59,757 bases of DNA from Chloroflexota bacterium. Its GTDB lineage: Bacteria > Chloroflexota > UBA5177. The stretch is taken from assembly GCA_025449555.1 (NCBI GenBank), contig JANWJD010000057.1, forward strand, positions 1-59,757. The letters are read 5' to 3'. The first letter of the stretch is position 1. Every line of letters begins with the position of its first letter. This document shows positions 7,979 through 41,032 of this stretch, piece after piece. The notes under the pieces were generated by a model. It worked only from the letters and a program-made list of their open reading frames with translations. It had not been told where the DNA came from and did not search any database. A program made the translations under genes and the position numbers.

Positions 7979-8141
7979 GCCTGATGATTTCTCCAAATAC
8001 TACGTATCGCCGCCCACCGGCCAGTACGGCCCGCACGGACGGCGACTCTCACGCAGTTTAGCATAGTCCTGAGCCGGGCCAACAGTGCGTTTCGTCTCAT
8101 GTGGTAGGCGGCATGTGTACCCTGGAGAGCGGTTGAAATCG

Positions 8142-9137
8142 ATGTCTGAAGAGCCTTCGGAAGGCAGTCGACCGTCACCGGTCGGATCGGTAGTGGCCCT
8201 GCTTGGGCCTACCGCAGTCGGCAAGAGTCGACACGCGCTCGAGCTGTGCCAGGAGTTCGGCGGCGTCATCCTGAGTGCCGACTCTCGGCAGGTCTATCGG
8301 TACATGGATATCGGCACGGACAAGCCGACGCCGGCGGATCGTGCCCTGGTGTCGCACTATATGCTCGATGTAATCGAGCCCGCGGAAACCTATTCAGCCC
8401 AGCGATTCGCACGTGAAGCGGAAAGTGTCCTGAAGGCTATGGAGTTCCAGCGCCGGCCGATCTTCGTGGTCGGAGGATCGGGGTTCTATGTCTCCGTTCT
8501 CCTCGATCGGCGCTCGATGCCGTCGGTGTCGCCGGATCCCGCACTTCGAGCTCAGTTGCGCGCCGAAGCGAAGCTCATTGGTGCCCCGGAGTTGCACGCC
8601 CGGCTCCATGCAGTCGATCCGTTCTCAGCCTCACGCATTCACCCCCATAACCTTCCTCGCATTATCCGCGCGCTCGAAATTGTGGATCGCACCGGCAGAC
8701 CCGTGCCGGCAGAACCAGAGAGTCCTCCCATTCCTGCCCTGTATCTTGGCCTTGAGATGGAAAGGTCGGCTCTGCACCGCATAGCCGACCAGAGGATCGA
8801 CCGGCAGATGCAGCTGGGCTTGGTGCAGGAGGTCGAGATGCTGTTCACCATGGGCTATGTGCCCACGTTGCCGGCGCTGGACGGGCTCGGATATCGGCAG
8901 ATGATTCAATATCTGCATGGGGAGGTATCACGCGAGCAGGCGATGGAGCGGTACAGGGTCGCGACACATCAGTACATCCGGCGGCAGCTCACCTGGTTCC
9001 GTCGAGACCGCCGGATCGAATGGGTGCAGGTTAATCAGTCGACGGGATCAATCCTACGAGACCGGGTCCAACGCCATCTGACTACGGTTTCGGAGCCTGC
9101 TTCGTCGGGGGGCGATGAACTGCGCGCTGAAGTGTAG
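8142..9137 (+). CDS. miaA: tRNA dimethylallyltransferase
   Basis: GPTAVGKS P-loop, DSRQVYRYMDIGTDKP, VGGSGFY, YIRRQLTWF; ATG 8142 preferred over 8085. Confidence 0.95.
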   Translation: MSEEPSEGSRPSPVGSVVALLGPTAVGKSRHALELCQEFGGVILSADSRQVYRYMDIGTDKPTPADRALVSHYMLDVIEPAETYSAQRFAREAESVLKAMEFQRRPIFVVGGSGFYVSVLLDRRSMPSVSPDPALRAQLRAEAKLIGAPELHARLHAVDPFSASRIHPHNLPRIIRALEIVDRTGRPVPAEPESPPIPALYLGLEMERSALHRIADQRIDRQMQLGLVQEVEMLFTMGYVPTLPALDGLGYRQMIQYLHGEVSREQAMERYRVATHQYIRRQLTWFRRDRRIEWVQVNQSTGSILRDRVQRHLTTVSEPASSGGDELRAEV

Positions 9138-11754
9138 CCGCCCTGGCCGGTGAACCGGCAGACACAGCGAACAAGCGCACCGCATCGGCACCCGAGTCGG
9201 ACACTGCGACCAGCCCGTTTGGCAGAGCGGCAACTCCTACTGGCGTCGTGAGGTTCGTCGACCCGAAGACGCCGATCAACCCGCCGGTCGTGGTGAATTC
9301 GGCCACTCGTTGTTGCTGAGGCTGCGTGGCGAAAACGCGCGTGCCCGCCGCGTTCACGGAGACGTATGGCTCATCGTACGAGCCGAACGTCCACTCAGGC
9401 ACGCTCCACGAACGCAGGTATGCGCCGGACGGCGTGAATGCCTGCATACGTTGATTCCAGAAGTCGGCAACATAAACCGTGCCGTCCGCCGCCACGGCGA
9501 CTGAAGACGGTTCCTGGAACTGCCCGGGAGCTGTACCGGCGGAGCCCCACGATGTTAGATAGCGGCCCTGCAAGGTATAGACCTTAATCCGTTTATTCCC
9601 TGTATCGGCGATGTAGACCTTGCCGCTTCTGGATATGGCGATGCCGCGGGGGCCGTAATACTGCCCGATGGCGGGACCGAAGGCTCCGCCTCCCCACTGG
9701 CGGATAAACTTTCCGGCGGGAGTAAAGACTTCGATTCGCTGATTCCATGTGTCAGCCACGTAGACGTTGTGGTCCGGTCCCACTGCCAGCCCCTGGGGGG
9801 AATCCCGCTGACTGAATTGACCGCTTCCGGTTCCGGCCGTTCCCCAACTTCCCAGGTACGCTCCGGAGGAGGAGTAGCGAACCACTCGGTGCCCCAGGGG
9901 ATCGGCCACGTATATGTCCCCGTTGGCGGCTACAGCGAGACCCCTGGGACCTCGAACTCCGGTAACGCCAGGCGCAGAGCCGAAAGAGGCGCGCACGGTG
10001 GATTTCAAACTCGGTTCCTGGATGATGGGGGCCGATGACGGCGAAGGCGGAGCAATGCTGGAATACTGCTGCTGCCCCGGCACCAGGTCACGCCGCACCA
10101 TGAAATACATCCACCTGGCTCCGCGCTGCCCGAATGGTTGTCGATAGAACAACCAGTTCCACAAACTGCTCCATTCGCCGGACGTCGGCAGCACCTGGAC
10201 TGGGCCGCTCTTTCCCTGCAGCGTCTGGCTGAGGGCCGTCGCGTGGTCGGGGAACCACTGTTTGTAGTCTTCCGGGAACCACCAATTCCAGCGGTACTTT
10301 TGCACCACATAGTGTTTCAACAGAAATGCGCTGTTCGCATCGTACTGCGGCTCCAGCATCACCAGCGCCGAGCAATACTGCCCACCGCAGGCCGGGGTGC
10401 CAAAGGCCGACGTCTCTGACACGTTCTTGTAGTCGCGCAGGTACCAGATGAAGGGCCAACCACCCACATCGGTATTGTCCAGACCGATGGTGAGGTTCTT
10501 GCCCTGCCCGGTCTTATTCGCGAGGCCGTTCAATTCGCCCACGACTGTCGGGACATCCTGGGACGTCTGGACGTAGATCAGCATCTCCGTCGGATTGGCG
10601 CCATCTGCGTAACTCAACAGGAACATCGAATGGATTTCGACGAACAGCAGCACCAGAAATACTGGAAGCGACGCCAGCCACATGACTCGTCGCCGCGACT
10701 CGAAGGCTGCACCTAAAAAGAGCCCGGCAAGGAGGATGAACGGCAGAGTGATATGGATCGAGAGCCAGGGCATTTTCTCGCCTGCCCACGAGTACATGCC
10801 CAAACTGAGGAGAGCCCACCACACGAGGAAGGTCGACGTAAACGATCGGCGCACCGCCGCGTACACCACGCCGGCTATTCCGAAGACCACTGCCAGCTGC
10901 TCGTAGAGCGGGAGCACCAGCAGATAGTAAAACCACGGTTGCCCGCCCCGCGCCACCGAGTGCTGAGCCTTCCAGTACGTCAAACCACCCAGAATGTCTT
11001 TGCGATCCGGGCTCAAAATGCTGTGCTGGGTGTCCCAAATACCGTACGGATTGGTGAAAAACGTCGAGTACGTGAGCACCGTTATCACCACGAACACACT
11101 CAAGCTAGTAAGGAACGTGTCCAGCGAGGTGGCCTTGAGCGCCGAAATGACGGGTCCAGTGCCGCCCGAGAGGTACTCACGCAACCATTCAAAGAACAGA
11201 AACGTGCCGAAAATGAAGAACGTGATGTATGCCGCCTCCATCGACGCCATGGCGAGTGCCATGGCCGCGGCGGCGACATGCAGATATGCCGGGCGTGGAG
11301 CCTCGATGTAGAGCACGATGCACGTAAATAGCAGAAGGCTGAAGCACGCCAGGTAAATGTCATCGCGAATGAATCGCGCAAAGTAAACCATTCCCGGCGA
11401 CACACAAATCATGAGCGAGGCCAGCAATGCCCCGGGACGGGTCAGATACGATCTCAGGAAGTACGGAAGCACGACCAGTGCGGTCCCGAGCGATACCGCC
11501 AGGAGGCGCGCTGAGAACTCGCTCGCCCCGAAAAGCAGGTAAAACAGCGGCACAATCTCGAATTGCAAGGGGCCGTGCATCAGGGGATCGTAGCTATACC
11601 CCTGGCCCACGAAAAACTTCCACGCGTAGTAGGCGTGCAAGCTCTCGTCGTGGTGCATGGCTCGGGCGCCGACGTCCCATATTCGAAGCGTGAAACCCAG
11701 CACAAGAATCGTGGCGTAGGCGATCAGTTCCCAGTGAGCCACGAGTCCGGCCAC
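9082..11754 (-). CDS. TIGR03663/Agl23-like GT-C membrane protein fused to a C-terminal NHL-repeat beta-propeller (true start possibly CTG at 11832)
   Basis: RAMHHDESLH, YDPLMHGPLQF, EKMPW, WWFPEDY motifs; more than 10 TM segments; repeated P.GLAV...G.IYVAD..N.RI NHL units. Confidence 0.82.
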   Translation of the reverse strand: MAGLVAHWELIAYATILVLGFTLRIWDVGARAMHHDESLHAYYAWKFFVGQGYSYDPLMHGPLQFEIVPLFYLLFGASEFSARLLAVSLGTALVVLPYFLRSYLTRPGALLASLMICVSPGMVYFARFIRDDIYLACFSLLLFTCIVLYIEAPRPAYLHVAAAAMALAMASMEAAYITFFIFGTFLFFEWLREYLSGGTGPVISALKATSLDTFLTSLSVFVVITVLTYSTFFTNPYGIWDTQHSILSPDRKDILGGLTYWKAQHSVARGGQPWFYYLLVLPLYEQLAVVFGIAGVVYAAVRRSFTSTFLVWWALLSLGMYSWAGEKMPWLSIHITLPFILLAGLFLGAAFESRRRVMWLASLPVFLVLLFVEIHSMFLLSYADGANPTEMLIYVQTSQDVPTVVGELNGLANKTGQGKNLTIGLDNTDVGGWPFIWYLRDYKNVSETSAFGTPACGGQYCSALVMLEPQYDANSAFLLKHYVVQKYRWNWWFPEDYKQWFPDHATALSQTLQGKSGPVQVLPTSGEWSSLWNWLFYRQPFGQRGARWMYFMVRRDLVPGQQQYSSIAPPSPSSAPIIQEPSLKSTVRASFGSAPGVTGVRGPRGLAVAANGDIYVADPLGHRVVRYSSSGAYLGSWGTAGTGSGQFSQRDSPQGLAVGPDHNVYVADTWNQRIEVFTPAGKFIRQWGGGAFGPAIGQYYGPRGIAISRSGKVYIADTGNKRIKVYTLQGRYLTSWGSAGTAPGQFQEPSSVAVAADGTVYVADFWNQRMQAFTPSGAYLRSWSVPEWTFGSYDEPYVSVNAAGTRVFATQPQQQRVAEFTTTGGLIGVFGSTNLTTPVGVAALPNGLVAVSDSGADAVRLFAVSAGSPARAATLQRAVHRPPTKQAPKP

Positions 11755-11848
11755 GCGCTGCCATGAAGGCGCGAGGGGACGGTCTAGCCAGGTACTTCTG
11801 TCGGTGGTCGGCGAGATTGAGAAGTCAGCCAGGTGGGTACCCCCCGTG

Positions 11849-13882
11849 CTAGTACGGACTCACCAGTCCGCGCTTCACATAATAGTAAAACGAAACAGAC
11901 TGCTTGTCCCCGAACGGTCGACGTTGCACGAACCACTGATAAATCACTTTCCAATCACCCGGGTTGACGATGTCTTTGCCAAATGAAGACCAAGTGAGCG
12001 ACTTGTAGTCCTCAGGGAACCACCAGCGAAGCCGATATTTGTGTCCCGTATAGCTGTTTTTGATCTCCGGATACAGCGCAGCCTGATGCGTCTCGTCCAC
12101 GATGATGACGGGGTTCGTGGAGAACGGAGGCTTGAGCAGGCCCGGGGATGCCGGGTAACCCACGTTTGGCATAGAGCGCAGATACCAGGCGAACGGCCAG
12201 GTATCCTCGGTATCGATCGTCACGTGCAAGTCGTTTCCACCCGTTACTTTGTTCGAGATGGACAGGATGTCGTTGGCGACCTTCGGCGTGTCGGGCGAGC
12301 TCTGCACGTACACCATCATTTCGACCGGGTCGGCCCCGTTCACAAAGTTGACTTCGTACGTGTTGTGAAGTTCCACCACCATGAGCAGGCCCAGGACCAC
12401 CGCCGTCACCCAGCGCACCATCGAGCTGAGCTGGAAAAGTTGGACGATGAACATGGCAGCCAGCAGCGTAAATGGGAGCAACGAGTGCACCATCAGCCAG
12501 GGAAACTTTTCTCCGGCCCAGGAGTACACGCCAAAGGCCAGGACGGCCCAGTAGGTGAGAAACGTCGTGAATGCAGTCGGATGGCGGGCGAACCAGATGA
12601 TCGCGCCAACTCCGAAAATCACCGCGATCTGTTCATATAGCCCAAACAGGAGCGAATAGTAAAACCACGGTTGACCACCCCGGTGCACGCCGTGTTGGCT
12701 CAACCAGTAGAACAGCCCCCCGATGATGTCCTTGCGACATGGATTCAGTGGAAACGAGTTATACGAACACTGCCCATGATTGAACAGAGCCTGTGAGGAG
12801 TCCCAGATGCCGTGCAGGTTGGTGCCGAATGTGGAGAAAAGCACAAATAAAACCGCGACTACGATGGTCGCCGCGTTGACCCACTGCTGCCGGTTGGGAG
12901 CACGTACAGCGTCGGTAAACGGGGTTTCATTGACGGCTTGAGTTTGCAGGGTGACCTGCCGGCTCACCAGCGCAAGCAGGCCAAGGCCCAATATCAGCGG
13001 AACGGGCAGGTAGAGCCCGGTGAGAACGGTCAATACGAATGCGAGGAGAAGTACGATTAGGAAGCCGTACAGAACACCGGCACGTATTCGATCGGTCCCG
13101 CCGGTTCGATTCCACAGATTGACCAGCCCCTGCAGTCGCCGGCTACGCGGCAGATGCTCCGACCCGAGTGCGACCAACAGAAACGTGCCCAGAATGAACA
13201 GGGTGATATAGGTGTTCTCCATTGCACTCAGCGACAGTGCGATGGAAGCTACTCCCATGTAGAGATAGCGGATTCGGTGCGTTCGCATGAACGAGAACAG
13301 GGCGATCGCCATCGTCATGCCGAAGAGGCACGACAACATGTCGTCGCGCTCCAACCGCGATGTGTAAACAAAGGCGGGAGAAATCGCGATCAGCCCCGCC
13401 GCGACCAGGGCGGCTCCCCGACCCATCCAATGGCGCAGAAAGAACGGAAGTCCCACCAGCACTGTGCCGAATAGGATCGACAACAATCGGCCGCTCACGT
13501 TCGAGACCCCGAACAAAAAGTAGAACAGAGCCGTGAGTGGGAACTGGAGCGGACCGTGGTAGACCGGATCGTATTGATAGCCGGCGCCCTTGTAGAGATT
13601 CCACGCAAGCCACGCATGAACCGCCTCGTCTCCGTGCATGGCTCTGCTGCCCGCATCCCAGATACGTACGGCGAACGCCGCGAGGACGACTACGATGTAC
13701 AGTGTCTGTTCCGTGGTTACCGCCGGCAGCGAGAACTGCCTGTTTGCCACGGTTGCACGCGGTACCGCTGCCGCTGTTGCGGCTGCCGTGGGCGAGGACG
13801 GAAGAGACGGAGGGCTGATCTTCACCGAGCTACGCTCACGAAAGCGCGCCTTCCGACGCGCGGCCGAATCAAATCCGGCCAT
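11849..13882 (-). CDS. TIGR03663/Agl23-like GT-C membrane protein, second paralogue without NHL
   Basis: RAMHGDEAVH, YDPVYHGPLQF, EKFPW, WWFPEDY; clearly homologous to the downstream neighbour. Confidence 0.82.
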   Translation of the reverse strand: MAGFDSAARRKARFRERSSVKISPPSLPSSPTAAATAAAVPRATVANRQFSLPAVTTEQTLYIVVVLAAFAVRIWDAGSRAMHGDEAVHAWLAWNLYKGAGYQYDPVYHGPLQFPLTALFYFLFGVSNVSGRLLSILFGTVLVGLPFFLRHWMGRGAALVAAGLIAISPAFVYTSRLERDDMLSCLFGMTMAIALFSFMRTHRIRYLYMGVASIALSLSAMENTYITLFILGTFLLVALGSEHLPRSRRLQGLVNLWNRTGGTDRIRAGVLYGFLIVLLLAFVLTVLTGLYLPVPLILGLGLLALVSRQVTLQTQAVNETPFTDAVRAPNRQQWVNAATIVVAVLFVLFSTFGTNLHGIWDSSQALFNHGQCSYNSFPLNPCRKDIIGGLFYWLSQHGVHRGGQPWFYYSLLFGLYEQIAVIFGVGAIIWFARHPTAFTTFLTYWAVLAFGVYSWAGEKFPWLMVHSLLPFTLLAAMFIVQLFQLSSMVRWVTAVVLGLLMVVELHNTYEVNFVNGADPVEMMVYVQSSPDTPKVANDILSISNKVTGGNDLHVTIDTEDTWPFAWYLRSMPNVGYPASPGLLKPPFSTNPVIIVDETHQAALYPEIKNSYTGHKYRLRWWFPEDYKSLTWSSFGKDIVNPGDWKVIYQWFVQRRPFGDKQSVSFYYYVKRGLVSPY

Positions 13883-14014: not shown

Positions 14015-15688
14015 TCACTGTGCCCGCTGTGTCTTTCCACTGGTCGTTTTCACGGCGACCTGTGCCCATGAACCCGAGCGGGGTATCACGCCGTAGCCGG
14101 TAAGCGACAAATTGTCGACTGAGGGCCGAATATACGTCAGCCGGTGAGGAATGTAAAGAGGAAGCCATGCTGCGTCCTGCACCAGGGACTCCTGGGCAGC
14201 GTTGTACAACTGCTGCTGGTGGCGCAGATTCCAGGTAACGTCCGCAGTGGCTACATACCAGTCGAACGCCTTGTTGGAGTAATGCATGTTGTTGTTGATG
14301 GCGTCCGATTTCCATTGCAAGGAAAGCCAATCGTGGGGGTCGGGGTAGTCGGCGGTCCATCCTGATAGGTAGAGTGGGAGCGAATTTTGCGCTTGCTTCG
14401 TCAGTAGGACGCTTTGCTCCAGCCCCTTGGTGTCGACGTGAATGTGGAGAGCGGTTCGCCACTGTTGGGCGACGGCTGCAACCAATCGCGCCAGAGTCGG
14501 CGAGGCGGCGTAGTACAGCGTGGTGGCAGGGAATCCCTTCCCGTTGGGGAAACCCGCGTCCTTCAGTTCAAGCCTGGCCCGGGCCACATCGTAGGGCAGC
14601 AATTTCAGCCTGGGATTGTAGCCCGCTTCATCCGCGGGAACATACCCGCCAAAGGGAGTCACAGAGTGTTTCATGGTCGCGGTTACGAGCGAATTTCGGT
14701 TGAGCGCCATGGTGAGTGCCCGACGCACGCGCTGGTCTCCGAAGGGTGTCACCTTCACGTTCATGTAGATGCCGTCGATGATGAGTGACTTCGTCTCACG
14801 GATTCCTTTCAACCCCACCAGTGCGCTGTCGTAGCTGAGATTCGCCACATCCGTGTTCTGACGAACGAAGTTGTACAGGTCGACACCGGTGCCTTGCAGC
14901 GTTCCGACCGAAATGACGACCTGTTTAACTCGCGGAGCAGGACCAGGAAAGTATTTGTTCGGTACCAGCACGAGCTTGCCGTTTGGAACCCAGGACTTCA
15001 GTCGGTACGGTCCACTTCCAATCGGGCTCGAATACCAGGACGTGTTATCCATCGGTCCCAGTTTTCGAATCGCCTTCTCGTCCAGTGCGTAGCTCGTCGG
15101 ATACGTCAATTCCATCAAGAAGTACGGAACCGGCCAGCGAGTCGTGATTTGCAGAGTGTGTGTATCGATCACCGAGATGCCGCTAACTGTTTTTGCCTTC
15201 CCGGTGAGGAAGTCGCCGGCTCCCTGGATATCAAGCAGATAGACTGGTGCCGTTGGAGACTTTATGCCCGCATCCAGACTCCGAATGATCGCGAATTTAT
15301 AGTCTTCCGCTCGCACCGGATCGCCGTTGCTGAATCTCAGATCAGGACGAAGGTGGAAAGTGTAGTGCCTGTGATCGGATGAAACCGAGTAGCTCGATGC
15401 ACCCGACGGCACAACTTTGTAAGTCGAGTCAAGTCGCACCAGCCCGGAGTACAGCAGATTCGCCAATTCGACGCTCTCTTCGTCCTCGACGAGCGCGGGA
15501 TCACCTCTCGGCCCGACCGCCAGCGCGATACGCAAGGAAACGACCGTGGGTTTCGGGGTTGGTTTGGCCGAAGTCTTGGTGGTCGATGGTTTTGGAGCAG
15601 ATGAATGCTGGCTCGCCTGGGTGATGGCAGGCAAGAGGCACGCAAACAGGACCAGGCCGGCTCCGCACGCTTTCCATCCAGTCTGCAA
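14015..15688 (-). CDS. ABC transporter substrate-binding protein, family 5 (OppA/DppA-like), orphan
   Basis: LYSGLV, YTFHLRPDLRFSNGDPVRAED, PIGSGPYRL, RVRRALTMALNR, GWTADYPDP; TTG 15688 lies 8 nt after GGAGGAG. Confidence 0.9.
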   Translation of the reverse strand: MQTGWKACGAGLVLFACLLPAITQASQHSSAPKPSTTKTSAKPTPKPTVVSLRIALAVGPRGDPALVEDEESVELANLLYSGLVRLDSTYKVVPSGASSYSVSSDHRHYTFHLRPDLRFSNGDPVRAEDYKFAIIRSLDAGIKSPTAPVYLLDIQGAGDFLTGKAKTVSGISVIDTHTLQITTRWPVPYFLMELTYPTSYALDEKAIRKLGPMDNTSWYSSPIGSGPYRLKSWVPNGKLVLVPNKYFPGPAPRVKQVVISVGTLQGTGVDLYNFVRQNTDVANLSYDSALVGLKGIRETKSLIIDGIYMNVKVTPFGDQRVRRALTMALNRNSLVTATMKHSVTPFGGYVPADEAGYNPRLKLLPYDVARARLELKDAGFPNGKGFPATTLYYAASPTLARLVAAVAQQWRTALHIHVDTKGLEQSVLLTKQAQNSLPLYLSGWTADYPDPHDWLSLQWKSDAINNNMHYSNKAFDWYVATADVTWNLRHQQQLYNAAQESLVQDAAWLPLYIPHRLTYIRPSVDNLSLTGYGVIPRSGSWAQVAVKTTSGKTQRAQ

Positions 15689-15748
15689 GTGCAACACTCC
15701 TCCGGAGACAGTGCCTCCGGTCGTACAAAGCGCAATGGGCGCGGAACG

Positions 15749-16255
15749 CTAATCTAAAACGGTCGAGTTACTGTGTCTGCCGAGCGTTCCAGTCCCGACT
15801 TTTATCTGGCCCCCCTGGATGGCAGAGGACCGGCGCGCTTTCAGCAGGGGAGCGGCCTGCCGCTTGATGGATGACTGTTGTGACGCCCACGCGATTTCGC
15901 TCGCGGACCGAGAGGAGTACCCAGCGTGCATGTTTACCGACAAAAGTACCAACACCGCGGCAATCGAGCTTCCGACGGCAGCCGGCGTCATGCGGCTCGC
16001 CGACAGAAATTTCCGAGCTGTGCTGCTTCGATGGCGGCGACGAACCGTGTCCGTAATCCTCTGCTCGGAAGCCGACGGGAGCGGAGCGCGATGCGCACCC
16101 CAGGCTCGCAGCATATCATCCAGAGCTCGCAGACGAGCTACTTCGCGCCTACAGGAGCCGCAATCACTTAAATGCTCGTTGACCCGTCCTCGCTCCAGCG
16201 GAGGCAGGTCTCCGTCAACGTAACGAGATAGCGTATCGAGTTCGCAGCACGTCAT
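15749..16255 (-). CDS. Zinc-finger (ZAS-type) membrane anti-sigma factor
   Basis: LSRYVDGDL...HLSDCGSC (HxxxCxxC), one TM helix, ATGA overlap with the sigma stop. Confidence 0.85.
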   Translation of the reverse strand: MTCCELDTLSRYVDGDLPPLERGRVNEHLSDCGSCRREVARLRALDDMLRAWGAHRAPLPSASEQRITDTVRRRHRSSTARKFLSASRMTPAAVGSSIAAVLVLLSVNMHAGYSSRSASEIAWASQQSSIKRQAAPLLKARRSSAIQGGQIKVGTGTLGRHSNSTVLD

Positions 16256-16809
16256 CCCACGGCTCCCAGCTCACCGGCCGCATATGCAGTCTTGAACATT
16301 TGTCGAGCGCGTGAGAGTCGCATGCGCACCGCCTCTGCGGAGATCCCCAGAATCTGAGCGGTCTCCTCAGAGGAAAAACCCTCCGCCAGCCGTAGCACCA
16401 GGCACAATGCGTAATCCGGTTTCATGTGGCTCAGTGCTGTCTGCACGGCCTCCTGCTCCGGCAAAGACTGTTCGCCGCCCAGGACCGAAAGCTGTGCCTC
16501 ATTTCGTGGAGAGTCGCCCCAGGGCATCCAGGACACTACCCTCTTGCGGCGCAAAACGTCTCGAAATCGATTGGACGCAATGCGATACAACCACGGGGCG
16601 ATGTTCGAATCCGGCCGCAGCTTCGGCAGAGACTCGTACGCGCTCAAGAACGTATCGTGGGTCAAGTCGTCCGCGAGCTCGCGACTCCCGCTCAGCCGAT
16701 ACAGATAGTTATAGATTTGTGCCTTGTGACGCTCGTAGATGAAGGTGAACGCATCTTCTTCCTGGCGTCGAAGCTGGTCGACAAGGGCTGCTTCCAAAGC
16801 GATCGCCAT
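16252..16809 (-). CDS. ECF RNA polymerase sigma factor
   Basis: Region 2 ADDLTHDTFL...WLYRIASNRFRD; region 4 LRLAEGFSSEETAQILGIS..AVRMRLSRAR; AGGAGG SD. Confidence 0.92.
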   Translation of the reverse strand: MAIALEAALVDQLRRQEEDAFTFIYERHKAQIYNYLYRLSGSRELADDLTHDTFLSAYESLPKLRPDSNIAPWLYRIASNRFRDVLRRKRVVSWMPWGDSPRNEAQLSVLGGEQSLPEQEAVQTALSHMKPDYALCLVLRLAEGFSSEETAQILGISAEAVRMRLSRARQMFKTAYAAGELGAVG

Positions 16810-17017: not shown

Positions 17018-17047
17018 TTGACACTGGTGCCGATTGGGGCTTAAATT
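17018..17047 (+). promoter_or_regulatory. Candidate sigma70 promoter TTGACA-N17/18-(T)TAAATT
   Basis: Perfect -35 at 17018-17023 and an AT-rich -10 at 17041-17047, upstream of the GAGGAGG SD of ORF 17086. Confidence 0.55.
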
Positions 17048-17085: not shown

Positions 17086-17403
17086 TTGCAGCGTCGTTCG
17101 TCGCGCCGCGGTCCCATCCAGTTTGGCATGCACGTCTTTGACGCTCATGAGCAAATGTTGGGGACGGTGGTTCTGGCACGCAAGGACCACTTCGTGATGC
17201 GCCAAGAACTGGGCATCAACCAGTTGGTCGACGTGCCCGGAGTCGCCGTTGCGGGCGTCGTGGGCGGCATTGTGTTTCTCAGTCTGACTCCCGGCGAAAT
17301 TGAGATCTTCTGCCGCACGCTCGAACGCAAGGAGCGTGGTGCGTCGGGTTTCAGCTTGATGCCGCGCCTGGTCCCGCCTCAGAAGTTGGCTGAGCAGACG
17401 TAG
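17086..17403 (+). CDS. Small hypothetical protein, PRC-barrel/DUF2171-like
   Basis: IQFGMHVFDAHEQMLGTV...VPGVAV pattern resembles PRC-barrel families; strong SD GAGGAGGGAG before TTG. Confidence 0.6.
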   Translation: MQRRSSRRGPIQFGMHVFDAHEQMLGTVVLARKDHFVMRQELGINQLVDVPGVAVAGVVGGIVFLSLTPGEIEIFCRTLERKERGASGFSLMPRLVPPQKLAEQT

Positions 17404-40888: not shown

Positions 40889-41032
40889 GAGGGGAGTAGC
40901 AGCGTTACGAATTGGGCCAGTGCCGCGTTAGTTGGTAGACACATTGCCCATCTATACCGCGATGCCGGATCGTGTCGATGGACCCTGCGAGGTTGGTTCC
41001 GGCTCATACGCCCTGAGGAGGGATAGAAGCGC

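Follow-up and report, generated by a model that had tools for sequence, protein, structure and literature searches.

Tandem TIGR03663/Agl23-family genes in a Chloroflexota genome: candidate outward-facing GT-C glycosyltransferases, one fused to an NHL propeller

Whether proteins of the Agl23 (TIGR03663) family flip lipid-linked sugars across the membrane or transfer sugars on its outer side is a question raised again by two adjacent genes in a Chloroflexota genome; the single archaeal member studied is named a flippase, although both the fold and the conserved residues match those of transferases. We analyzed the full 59,757-nt stretch of contig JANWJD010000057.1 (the window), from a metagenome-assembled genome (MAG) that is 84% complete and comprises 3.68 Mb in 293 contigs. 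The two genes encode the paralogues A, which ends in an NHL propeller, and B, which does not. With moderate confidence we propose that A and B are outward-facing enzymes of the glycosyltransferase C (GT-C) fold, most likely transferases dependent on a polyprenyl-phosphate sugar, because of their fold, an Asp-Glu pair in loop 1 together with charged residues of the outer loops, an external domain, a tethered propeller, and separate candidates for donor synthesis and flipping elsewhere in the genome. If this is true, the family name misleads the annotation of thousands of genes, and the Chloroflexota have a major unexplored route of envelope glycosylation; otherwise A and B only add to a family that is already catalogued. 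The locus is a clean natural experiment on this question: of two young paralogues, both intact, one has a propeller and the other has none, and they are placed behind a sigma/anti-sigma switch of their own.

Family, fold and topology of the two proteins

Residue conservation was scored over 47 A-type and 52 B-type homologues, and structures were modeled with AlphaFold2 (AF2) from homologue alignments, with the predicted local distance difference test (pLDDT) as the measure of confidence. The parts of the two genes, with their transmembrane (TM) helices, are as follows.

9082-11754, minus strand: open reading frame (ORF) A, 890 aa, GTG start
11849-13882, minus strand: B, paralogue of A, a TIGR03663/Agl23-family GT-C protein with no propeller, 677 aa, ATG start
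11644-11649, minus strand: codons for D36-E37 of A, the loop-1 acidic pair, invariant in the A-type homologues (n=47)
13625-13630, minus strand: codons for D85-E86 of B, the loop-1 acidic pair in the first loop after TM1, invariant in the B-type homologues (n=52)
10606-11754, minus strand: membrane module of A, residues 1-383, 11 predicted TM helices, pLDDT mostly >90
10087-10605, minus strand: predicted external alpha/beta domain of A containing WWFPEDY, residues 384-556, from AF2 secondary structure
10003-10086, minus strand: Ser/Pro-rich flexible linker of A, residues 557-584, sequence QQYSSIAPPSPSSAPIIQEPS, pLDDT <50 at 560-577
9160-10002, minus strand: six-bladed NHL beta-propeller of A, residues 585-865
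9082-9159, minus strand: disordered basic C-terminal tail of A with the stop codon, pLDDT <50 over residues 871-890

A preliminary description of this DNA had proposed two adjacent, co-oriented polytopic paralogues, and the exact coordinates and the presence of all five shared motifs in both proteins bear this out. The genes are separated by 94 nt, and in each half of the membrane module the proteins share 37-41% identity (BLASTP E 8e-80 and 4e-50). The motifs read RAMHHDESLH, YDPLMHGPLQF, RGGQPWFYY, EKMPW and WWFPEDY in A, and RAMHGDEAVH, YDPVYHGPLQF, RGGQPWFYY, EKFPW and WWFPEDY in B.

The suggested TIGR03663 membership was confirmed by profile search, for which the curated cut-off is 126.25 bits with a model of 435 positions. 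A scores 286 bits over model positions 3-432 (protein residues 12-444), while B scores 266.5 bits in two stretches on either side of a two-helix insert. These are the sole true members in the genome, six further GT-C-like genes scoring 23-31 bits. Of the other glycosyltransferase profiles named in the preliminary description, PMT_2 (PF13231, cut-off 26.1 bits) is matched, at 37 bits by A and 39 bits by B, while membership in GT39 or GT83 is not borne out: the profile search found no match to the PMT profile PF02366 or to the MIR domain in either protein at E <= 0.1, and the ArnT equivalog NF009784 gives 16.3 bits in B against a cut-off of 567 bits, with A unmatched. Neither protein matches an oligosaccharyltransferase family profile, and a sequence-level search of the PDB with the membrane module returned no relatives.

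The hallmark of TIGR03663 in its TIGRFAMs description is an invariant N-terminal DE dipeptide, an HGP tripeptide and two arginines. A carries R24, R31, D36, E37 and H60-G61-P62, and B carries the equivalents, all of them invariant or at least 90% conserved among the homologues. In a table of 27 signature positions (A numbering), A retains 27 and B 26, the H35 of A being Gly in B. The orthologues of A and B at the related loci L012-L020 (L-numbers designate related loci throughout) retain 24-27, with D36, E37, G61/P62 and the basic residues always among them. By every feature that can be computed, A and B are members of the TIGR03663/Agl23 family and of the GT-C superfamily.

The AF2 model of B has a pLDDT of 86.9 and a predicted TM-score (pTM) of 0.85. 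For A the pLDDT is 88.5 and the pTM 0.65, the latter being low because two bodies are connected by the disordered stretch at residues 560-577. When the B model was compared to the PDB with Foldseek, all 28 matches at E <= 0.001 were GT-C glycosyltransferases with probability 1.00, among them AglB (E 2.7e-8), STT3, PglB, ArnT, ALG12 (target-normalized TM-score 0.66), ALG9 and Pmt4. Entries outside GT-C, transporters first, appear only at E >= 0.68 with probability <0.1, and no flippase fold does better. The modeled B thus has the GT-C membrane fold, on which the preliminary description had made its proposal depend.

B is predicted to have 13 TM helices, followed by an external alpha/beta C-domain (residues 515-677); specific to B are a helix pair at 268-317 and a basic cytoplasmic N-terminal extension (residues 1-56). 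With the N-terminus placed inside, lysine and arginine make up 6 of 32 residues (19%) in the inner loops of A and 9 of 111 (8%) in the outer loops; the corresponding counts for B are 17 of 103 (16.5%) and 8 of 128 (6%). As the helix counts and the positive-inside rule put the N-terminus inside, the conserved DE, HGP, RxxRD, RGGQPW and GEKxPW motifs, the C-domain and the propeller are all predicted to lie on the outer side. The acidic pair that had been placed in the first outer loop is indeed in the loop after TM1 in both proteins (D36/E37 and D85/E86), predicted to face outward. In the external domain, W492 and Y497 of WWFPEDY do not vary among the A-type homologues, and conservation of W491 is at least 90%.

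The propeller of A was also correctly anticipated, with a Ser/Pro linker and multiple blades: NHL repeats score 114.8 bits in Pfam, and the model has 24 beta-strands arranged as six four-stranded blades over residues 585-864. Matches to the propeller by sequence in the PDB are Thin, TRIM71 and PknD, and in Foldseek the target-normalized TM-score is 0.86-0.90 against TRIM2, TRIM71 and Thin and 0.79 against the extracellular PknD sensor. At L037-L039 the GT-C module and the NHL domain are encoded by separate adjacent genes, and a signal-anchor helix opens the NHL protein in both of those translated (L037 and L039). The propeller of A is predicted from the model to be tethered outside the cell, and the signal-anchor helix of the stand-alone NHL proteins is independent support for an external location. 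It probably binds an acceptor or a partner protein; a role in selecting acceptors would be analogous to what MIR, TPR and CBM domains do elsewhere among GT-C enzymes.

A proposed transferase, working singly or in a pair

The reaction that we propose would begin in the cytoplasm, where a Dpm1/AglJ-like family 2 glycosyltransferase (GT2) would load a hexose onto polyprenyl phosphate. After the lipid-linked sugar had reached the outer leaflet, A and B would use the loop-1 Asp-Glu pair and a ring of Arg, His and Glu residues from the outer loops to place the sugar on an extracytoplasmic acceptor, which could be an envelope protein, a glycan or a lipid, while the propeller of A, on its Ser/Pro tether outside the membrane, would probably bind that acceptor or a partner.

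Among the best 80 related loci, of more than 597 related stretches in species-representative genomes, the recurrent neighbors of the TIGR03663 genes are TIGR03662/DUF2298 genes in 41, a second TIGR03663-like gene upstream in about 25, an LPG_synthase_TM "flippase-like" protein in 15, an extracytoplasmic function (ECF) sigma factor in 13 and a Dpm1/AglJ-like GT2 in 9. We considered whether the pair belongs to a glycosylation island within the window and rejected this, as its neighbors there include SecA, PrfB, MiaA, a Ctp protease and a GIY-YIG protein, with no GT2 or flippase gene next to the pair. The candidate donor synthase, a Dpm1/AglJ-like GT2, is on contig C44 among trp and rRNA-methylase genes and is 43% identical to the GT2 that neighbors the fusion in L032. 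Elsewhere the genome encodes five LPG_synthase_TM "flippase-like" proteins and one GtrA-like protein. Contig C130 carries a DUF2298 tandem (L098, 9568-16766, minus strand), comprising a 1659-aa PMT_2::DUF2298 fusion and then a DUF2298 protein of 740 aa. Genes for hflX and a fabI-like protein flank the tandem, and the TIGR03662 scores on this contig are 505.8 bits and, including same-frame neighboring stretches, 428.5 bits. TIGR03662 thus co-occurs with TIGR03663 in this genome, not adjacent to A and B.

Periplasmic glycosylation systems of three components comprise a polyprenyl-phosphate sugar synthase, a flippase and a GT-C transferase, as in GtrA/GtrB/GtrC, ArnC/ArnT and Ppm1/Pmt. The present genome resembles these in the GT-C fold of B and its predicted external loop-1 acidic residue, and in having Dpm1-like GT2, GtrA-like and flippase-like proteins, which are clustered with GT-C genes in some relatives. 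It differs in that A and B fall outside GT39 and GT83 and lack a MIR domain, and in that the parts are dispersed in the genome. The likeness of B to the GT83 enzyme ArnT is at the level of fold (5f15/5ezm), with a TM-score for 5f15 of 0.47 normalized to the query and 0.58 to the target. The oligosaccharyltransferases STT3, AglB and PglB are the best structural matches of B by E-value, with TM-scores of only about 0.4, a relation seen at the level of fold. Features of that family are a WWDYG motif directly behind the last TM helix and DxD; the conserved WWFPEDY of A and B, which may or may not correspond to WWDYG, is found some 110 residues past the last TM helix, within the external domain. 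In yeast Pmt1-Pmt2 (PDB 6p25), too, there are two GT-C paralogues, each with a loop-1 Asp-Glu, and the luminal accessory domain is thought to engage substrate, although this domain is an internal MIR beta-trefoil in Pmt and a C-terminal NHL propeller in A, and the likeness is again one of fold (E 1.6e-3 to 9.5e-3, TM-score about 0.25).

Genes of this general type are common. TIGR03663 is present above the cut-off in 199 of 301 sampled Chloroflexota genomes, and an exhaustive search at E <= 1e-30 gave 740 clusters at 50% identity. The GT-C::NHL fusion is found in nearly all of the best 80 loci, mostly from Chloroflexota, and in public records such proteins go by the name "TIGR03663 family protein" or by "flippase activity-associated protein Agl23". 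Tandems in which one of the TIGR03663 genes has an NHL fusion are common in the phylum and already annotated. Particular to this lineage are the intact duplicated pair, in which B is not the degenerate paralogue that we call U, and the module of ECF sigma factor and orphan solute-binding protein described below.

U is the older, degenerate TIGR03663-like paralogue found upstream in Anaerolineae-type clusters, which consist of DUF2298, U and TIGR03663::NHL genes and were seen in 41 of the 80 related loci. U has lost the Asp of the acidic pair, reads HSP in place of HGP, and shows degeneration at RGGQPW and E326. The Anaerolineae-type clusters and the present locus have in common an NHL-fused enzyme behind a shorter paralogue, and ECF sigma genes recur nearby, in 13 of the 80 loci; unlike those clusters, the window has a young and intact upstream paralogue, an orphan solute-binding protein before the pair, and its DUF2298 genes on another contig. 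No U-type gene was found in this genome or its family. The possibility that B is an orthologue of the Asp-less U was ruled out by the motif table, the tree and the approximately unbiased (AU) test, in which forcing B and U together cost 44 log-likelihood units (AU p = 0.0078, for a group named after the tree had been seen).

In the maximum likelihood tree, the B clade (Shimodaira-Hasegawa-like approximate likelihood ratio, SH-aLRT, 100) is sister (99) to the A clade of the same lineage, the two subtrees mirror each other, and U forms a distinct, older clade. Because B groups with the A clade of its own lineage and U stands apart, the tree indicates that A and B are products of a lineage-specific duplication of an intact enzyme. 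The C-terminus of B coincides with the end of the external domain of A and the start of its linker, and loss of the propeller from B would be most parsimonious, since in the rest of the intact clade every member either has one or is next to one.

Several loci (L017-L020 and L052) come from MAGs labeled "Proteobacteria" or "Sphingomonadaceae"; the loci nest within the Chloroflexota A and B clades and have the same synteny, and these record labels are probably wrong, or the bins mixed.

If both proteins are transferases, they may still act independently of each other, on different acceptors or with different sugars, with no obligate heteromer, the tandem reflecting only recent duplication and shared regulation. 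We regard this as quite possible, if short of probable. Neither protein looks like a non-catalytic partner, as the signature residues are present in both, and the duplication is specific to the lineage, with a clean loss of the propeller at the linker. Many Chloroflexota genomes have one TIGR03663 gene, of about 590 aa and without a propeller, suggesting that the module can work alone. An apparent B::A fusion, a single 1624-aa frame in genome G073 (contig C93, L100, 1833-6587), proved in the DNA to be two ORFs, the first closed by a stop codon and the second opened by its own ATG after 3 nt, and we have therefore dropped it as evidence for a heteromer. Set against independence, B sits in the upstream slot of U while the genome and its family have no U, so that it looks like a substitute partner; every relative seen has the same gene order, with gaps from B to A of 3-96 nt; and Pmt1-Pmt2 is a precedent for a GT-C heterodimer. 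The case that A and B may form a heteromer, as the preliminary description had proposed, is circumstantial, drawing on conserved adjacency, on a duplicate in the slot of a degenerate partner and on the yeast analogy.

Transfer or flipping

Several points weigh against our proposal that A and B are transferases. We know of no bacterial member for which the donor, acceptor or product has been established, and to our knowledge the sole experimental data on the family come from the archaeal member and point to translocation rather than transfer. The GT2, flippase-like and DUF2298 genes of this genome are on other contigs among housekeeping genes, so that their linkage to the pair comes from relatives. 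It is from the predicted topology alone that we take the conserved residues to gather in one site, and, as regards the regulation considered below, counts of generic promoters and terminators are at or under the shuffled expectation. In those archaeal data, Agl23 of Haloarcula hispanica suppresses the deletion of rft1 in yeast and, once purified and placed in proteoliposomes, flips both M5GN2-PP-Dol and M5GN2-PP-Phy (PMC11182771). A role as hexose-P-dolichol flippase has also been ascribed to it (Lu et al. 2020, Mol Microbiol 114:762, as cited in Chen et al. 2024, PMC11182771).

A and B might accordingly be flippases or scramblases of lipid-linked sugars, with transfer left to another enzyme, for example the DUF2298 proteins, and the outer residues binding the head group on release. 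Besides the rft1 suppression and the liposome assay, the NCBIfam name of the family and the co-occurrence of TIGR03663 with TIGR03662/DUF2298, a possible transferase, speak for this. We nevertheless consider it unlikely. The fold is that of GT-C transferases and known flippase folds are unmatched, while the strict loop-1 Asp-Glu pair, the conserved external domain and an external propeller would not be needed for flipping. Separate LPG_synthase_TM genes are present in the 15 related clusters mentioned above, and this genome has its five such proteins and one GtrA-like protein in addition to the pair. The reported loss of "utilization" of dolichyl-phosphate hexose in an agl23 mutant would be expected equally if a transferase were lost. 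Transfer and flipping could also coexist.

The comparison to Agl23 itself cuts both ways. A and B belong to the same curated family, at more than twice the cut-off, and have the same signature residues, and this genome has TIGR03662 members, as do the haloarchaeal and methanogen control genomes. Unlike Agl23, A and B are bacterial, duplicated in tandem, fused in one case to NHL, placed behind an ECF sigma/anti-sigma pair and an orphan solute-binding protein, and located outside any N-glycosylation (agl) cluster, and their anatomy argues for an outward-facing transferase. A search of the literature for DUF2298, TIGR03663 or GT-C with NHL in Chloroflexi found nothing relevant in the collection covered.

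That the propeller is instead a sensor (PknD-like) or a catalytic domain (similar to NHL-fold lyases or lactonases), by which the GT-C module would be linked to signals from the envelope or to a second reaction, seems to us quite doubtful, for although its structural neighbors include the PknD sensor and peptidyl-hydroxyglycine lyase, it weakly matches the SGL/gluconolactonase and Vgb lyase profiles and the genes lie behind an ECF sigma/anti-sigma pair, its conserved residues are generic NHL consensus (ADTWNQR, ADTGNKR), the SGL, Vgb and ScyF matches are partial, with Vgb lyase and ScyF/ScyE under the curated cut-offs, and a metal-binding His triad of the lyase type was not identified, the model not having been inspected in 3D for it.

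The gene module around the pair

The pair is the end of a conserved, co-directional series of genes: an ECF sigma factor, a zf-HC2 anti-sigma factor, an orphan OppA-like family-5 solute-binding protein (SBP_5), B and A, with miaA convergent. The upstream features are as follows.

16252-16809, minus strand: ECF sigma factor, 185 aa, first gene of the module, with Sigma70_r2 and r4_2, TIGR02937 88 bits
15749-16255, minus strand: anti-sigma factor, 168 aa, one TM helix, Pfam zf-HC2 E 7e-9, 4-nt overlap with the sigma gene
14015-15697, minus strand: exported OppA-like family-5 solute-binding protein, 560 aa, SBP_bac_5 227 bits
16835-16861, minus strand: candidate ECF-type promoter, GTTAC-N17-CGTTG, 25-52 nt upstream of the sigma gene
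16941-16925: terminator-like hairpin, just upstream of the candidate promoter

The sigma gene is upstream of B and A in L012, L014, L015 and L017-L020, at 66-97% identity, and directly upstream of them in the deeper branch L017-L019, while the position of the anti-sigma gene is kept in L012, L014, L015 and L020. We also considered, and rejected, the idea that this sigma factor is an orthologue of the one in the Anaerolineae clusters; the 28% identity between them is generic for ECF sigmas.

The SBP_5 gene is immediately upstream of B in the window and in L012, L014, L015, L020, L101 and L102. Its best NCBIfam matches are OppA and GsiB, both far under their cut-offs, and it is called an orphan here as no ABC permease or ATPase gene is beside it. 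Where start codons are reliable, the gap from SBP_5 to B ranges from -4 to 104 nt; in L102 the SBP_5 stop overlaps the B start by 4 nt, suggesting translational coupling. The S/T/P-rich (Ser/Thr/Pro) stretches that the preliminary description had pointed out in ORFs 14015, 27714 and 41033, as marks of possible substrates, are indeed present, and these are low-complexity exported proteins. In the first of these, the SBP_5 protein, the linker is behind the signal peptide, and it is present in some orthologues and missing from others, and so it is no conserved target.

In all five of the close loci (the window, L012, L014, L015 and L020), a GTTRC-N17-CGTTG sequence is found 25-55 nt upstream of the sigma gene. 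About 1.3 matches to the motif are expected per window by chance. There is no second copy before SBP_5, B or A, and a scan found no terminator-like sites within the intergenic gaps of the module. The motif, as a putative promoter, and the hairpin fit a single transcription unit from the sigma gene to A, which would place the pair under the control of the ECF sigma factor. One other match in the window, GTTAC-N17-CGTTA at 40904-40930 (plus strand), is about 130 nt upstream of ORF 41033, which encodes a secreted G/S/T-rich repeat protein; it is within chance expectation, and we mention it as a lead.

If the transferase proposal is extended to the whole module, one may speculate that the bacterial Agl23 family consists of outward GT-C transferases, not flippases, that require a partner, and that the pair was rebuilt here by duplicating the NHL-fused enzyme after an ancient partner was lost. 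Together with an OppA-like protein that presents the acceptor or is itself the acceptor, A and B would then form an ECF-sigma-controlled envelope glycosylation machine of an undescribed kind. Taken as a whole, this extension is improbable by our own estimate.

At the other end of the module, the 3' ends of A and the convergent miaA gene (8085-9137) overlap by 56 nt (9082-9137), and a convergent overlap of 4-56 nt is found as well in L012, L013, L015, L020 and L101. No RNA elements or tRNAs were found at 8.8-17.6 kb. The spacer of about 600 nt between the GIY-YIG and ECF sigma genes contains a 105-aa ORF (17086-17403, plus strand) that is divergent from the sigma gene and has no Pfam match. A sigma-70-like promoter match is located just upstream of it (17018-17047, plus strand), and the amino acid identity of its product with those of L014, L015 and L020 is 87-92%, against only about 55-60% for A and B at these loci.

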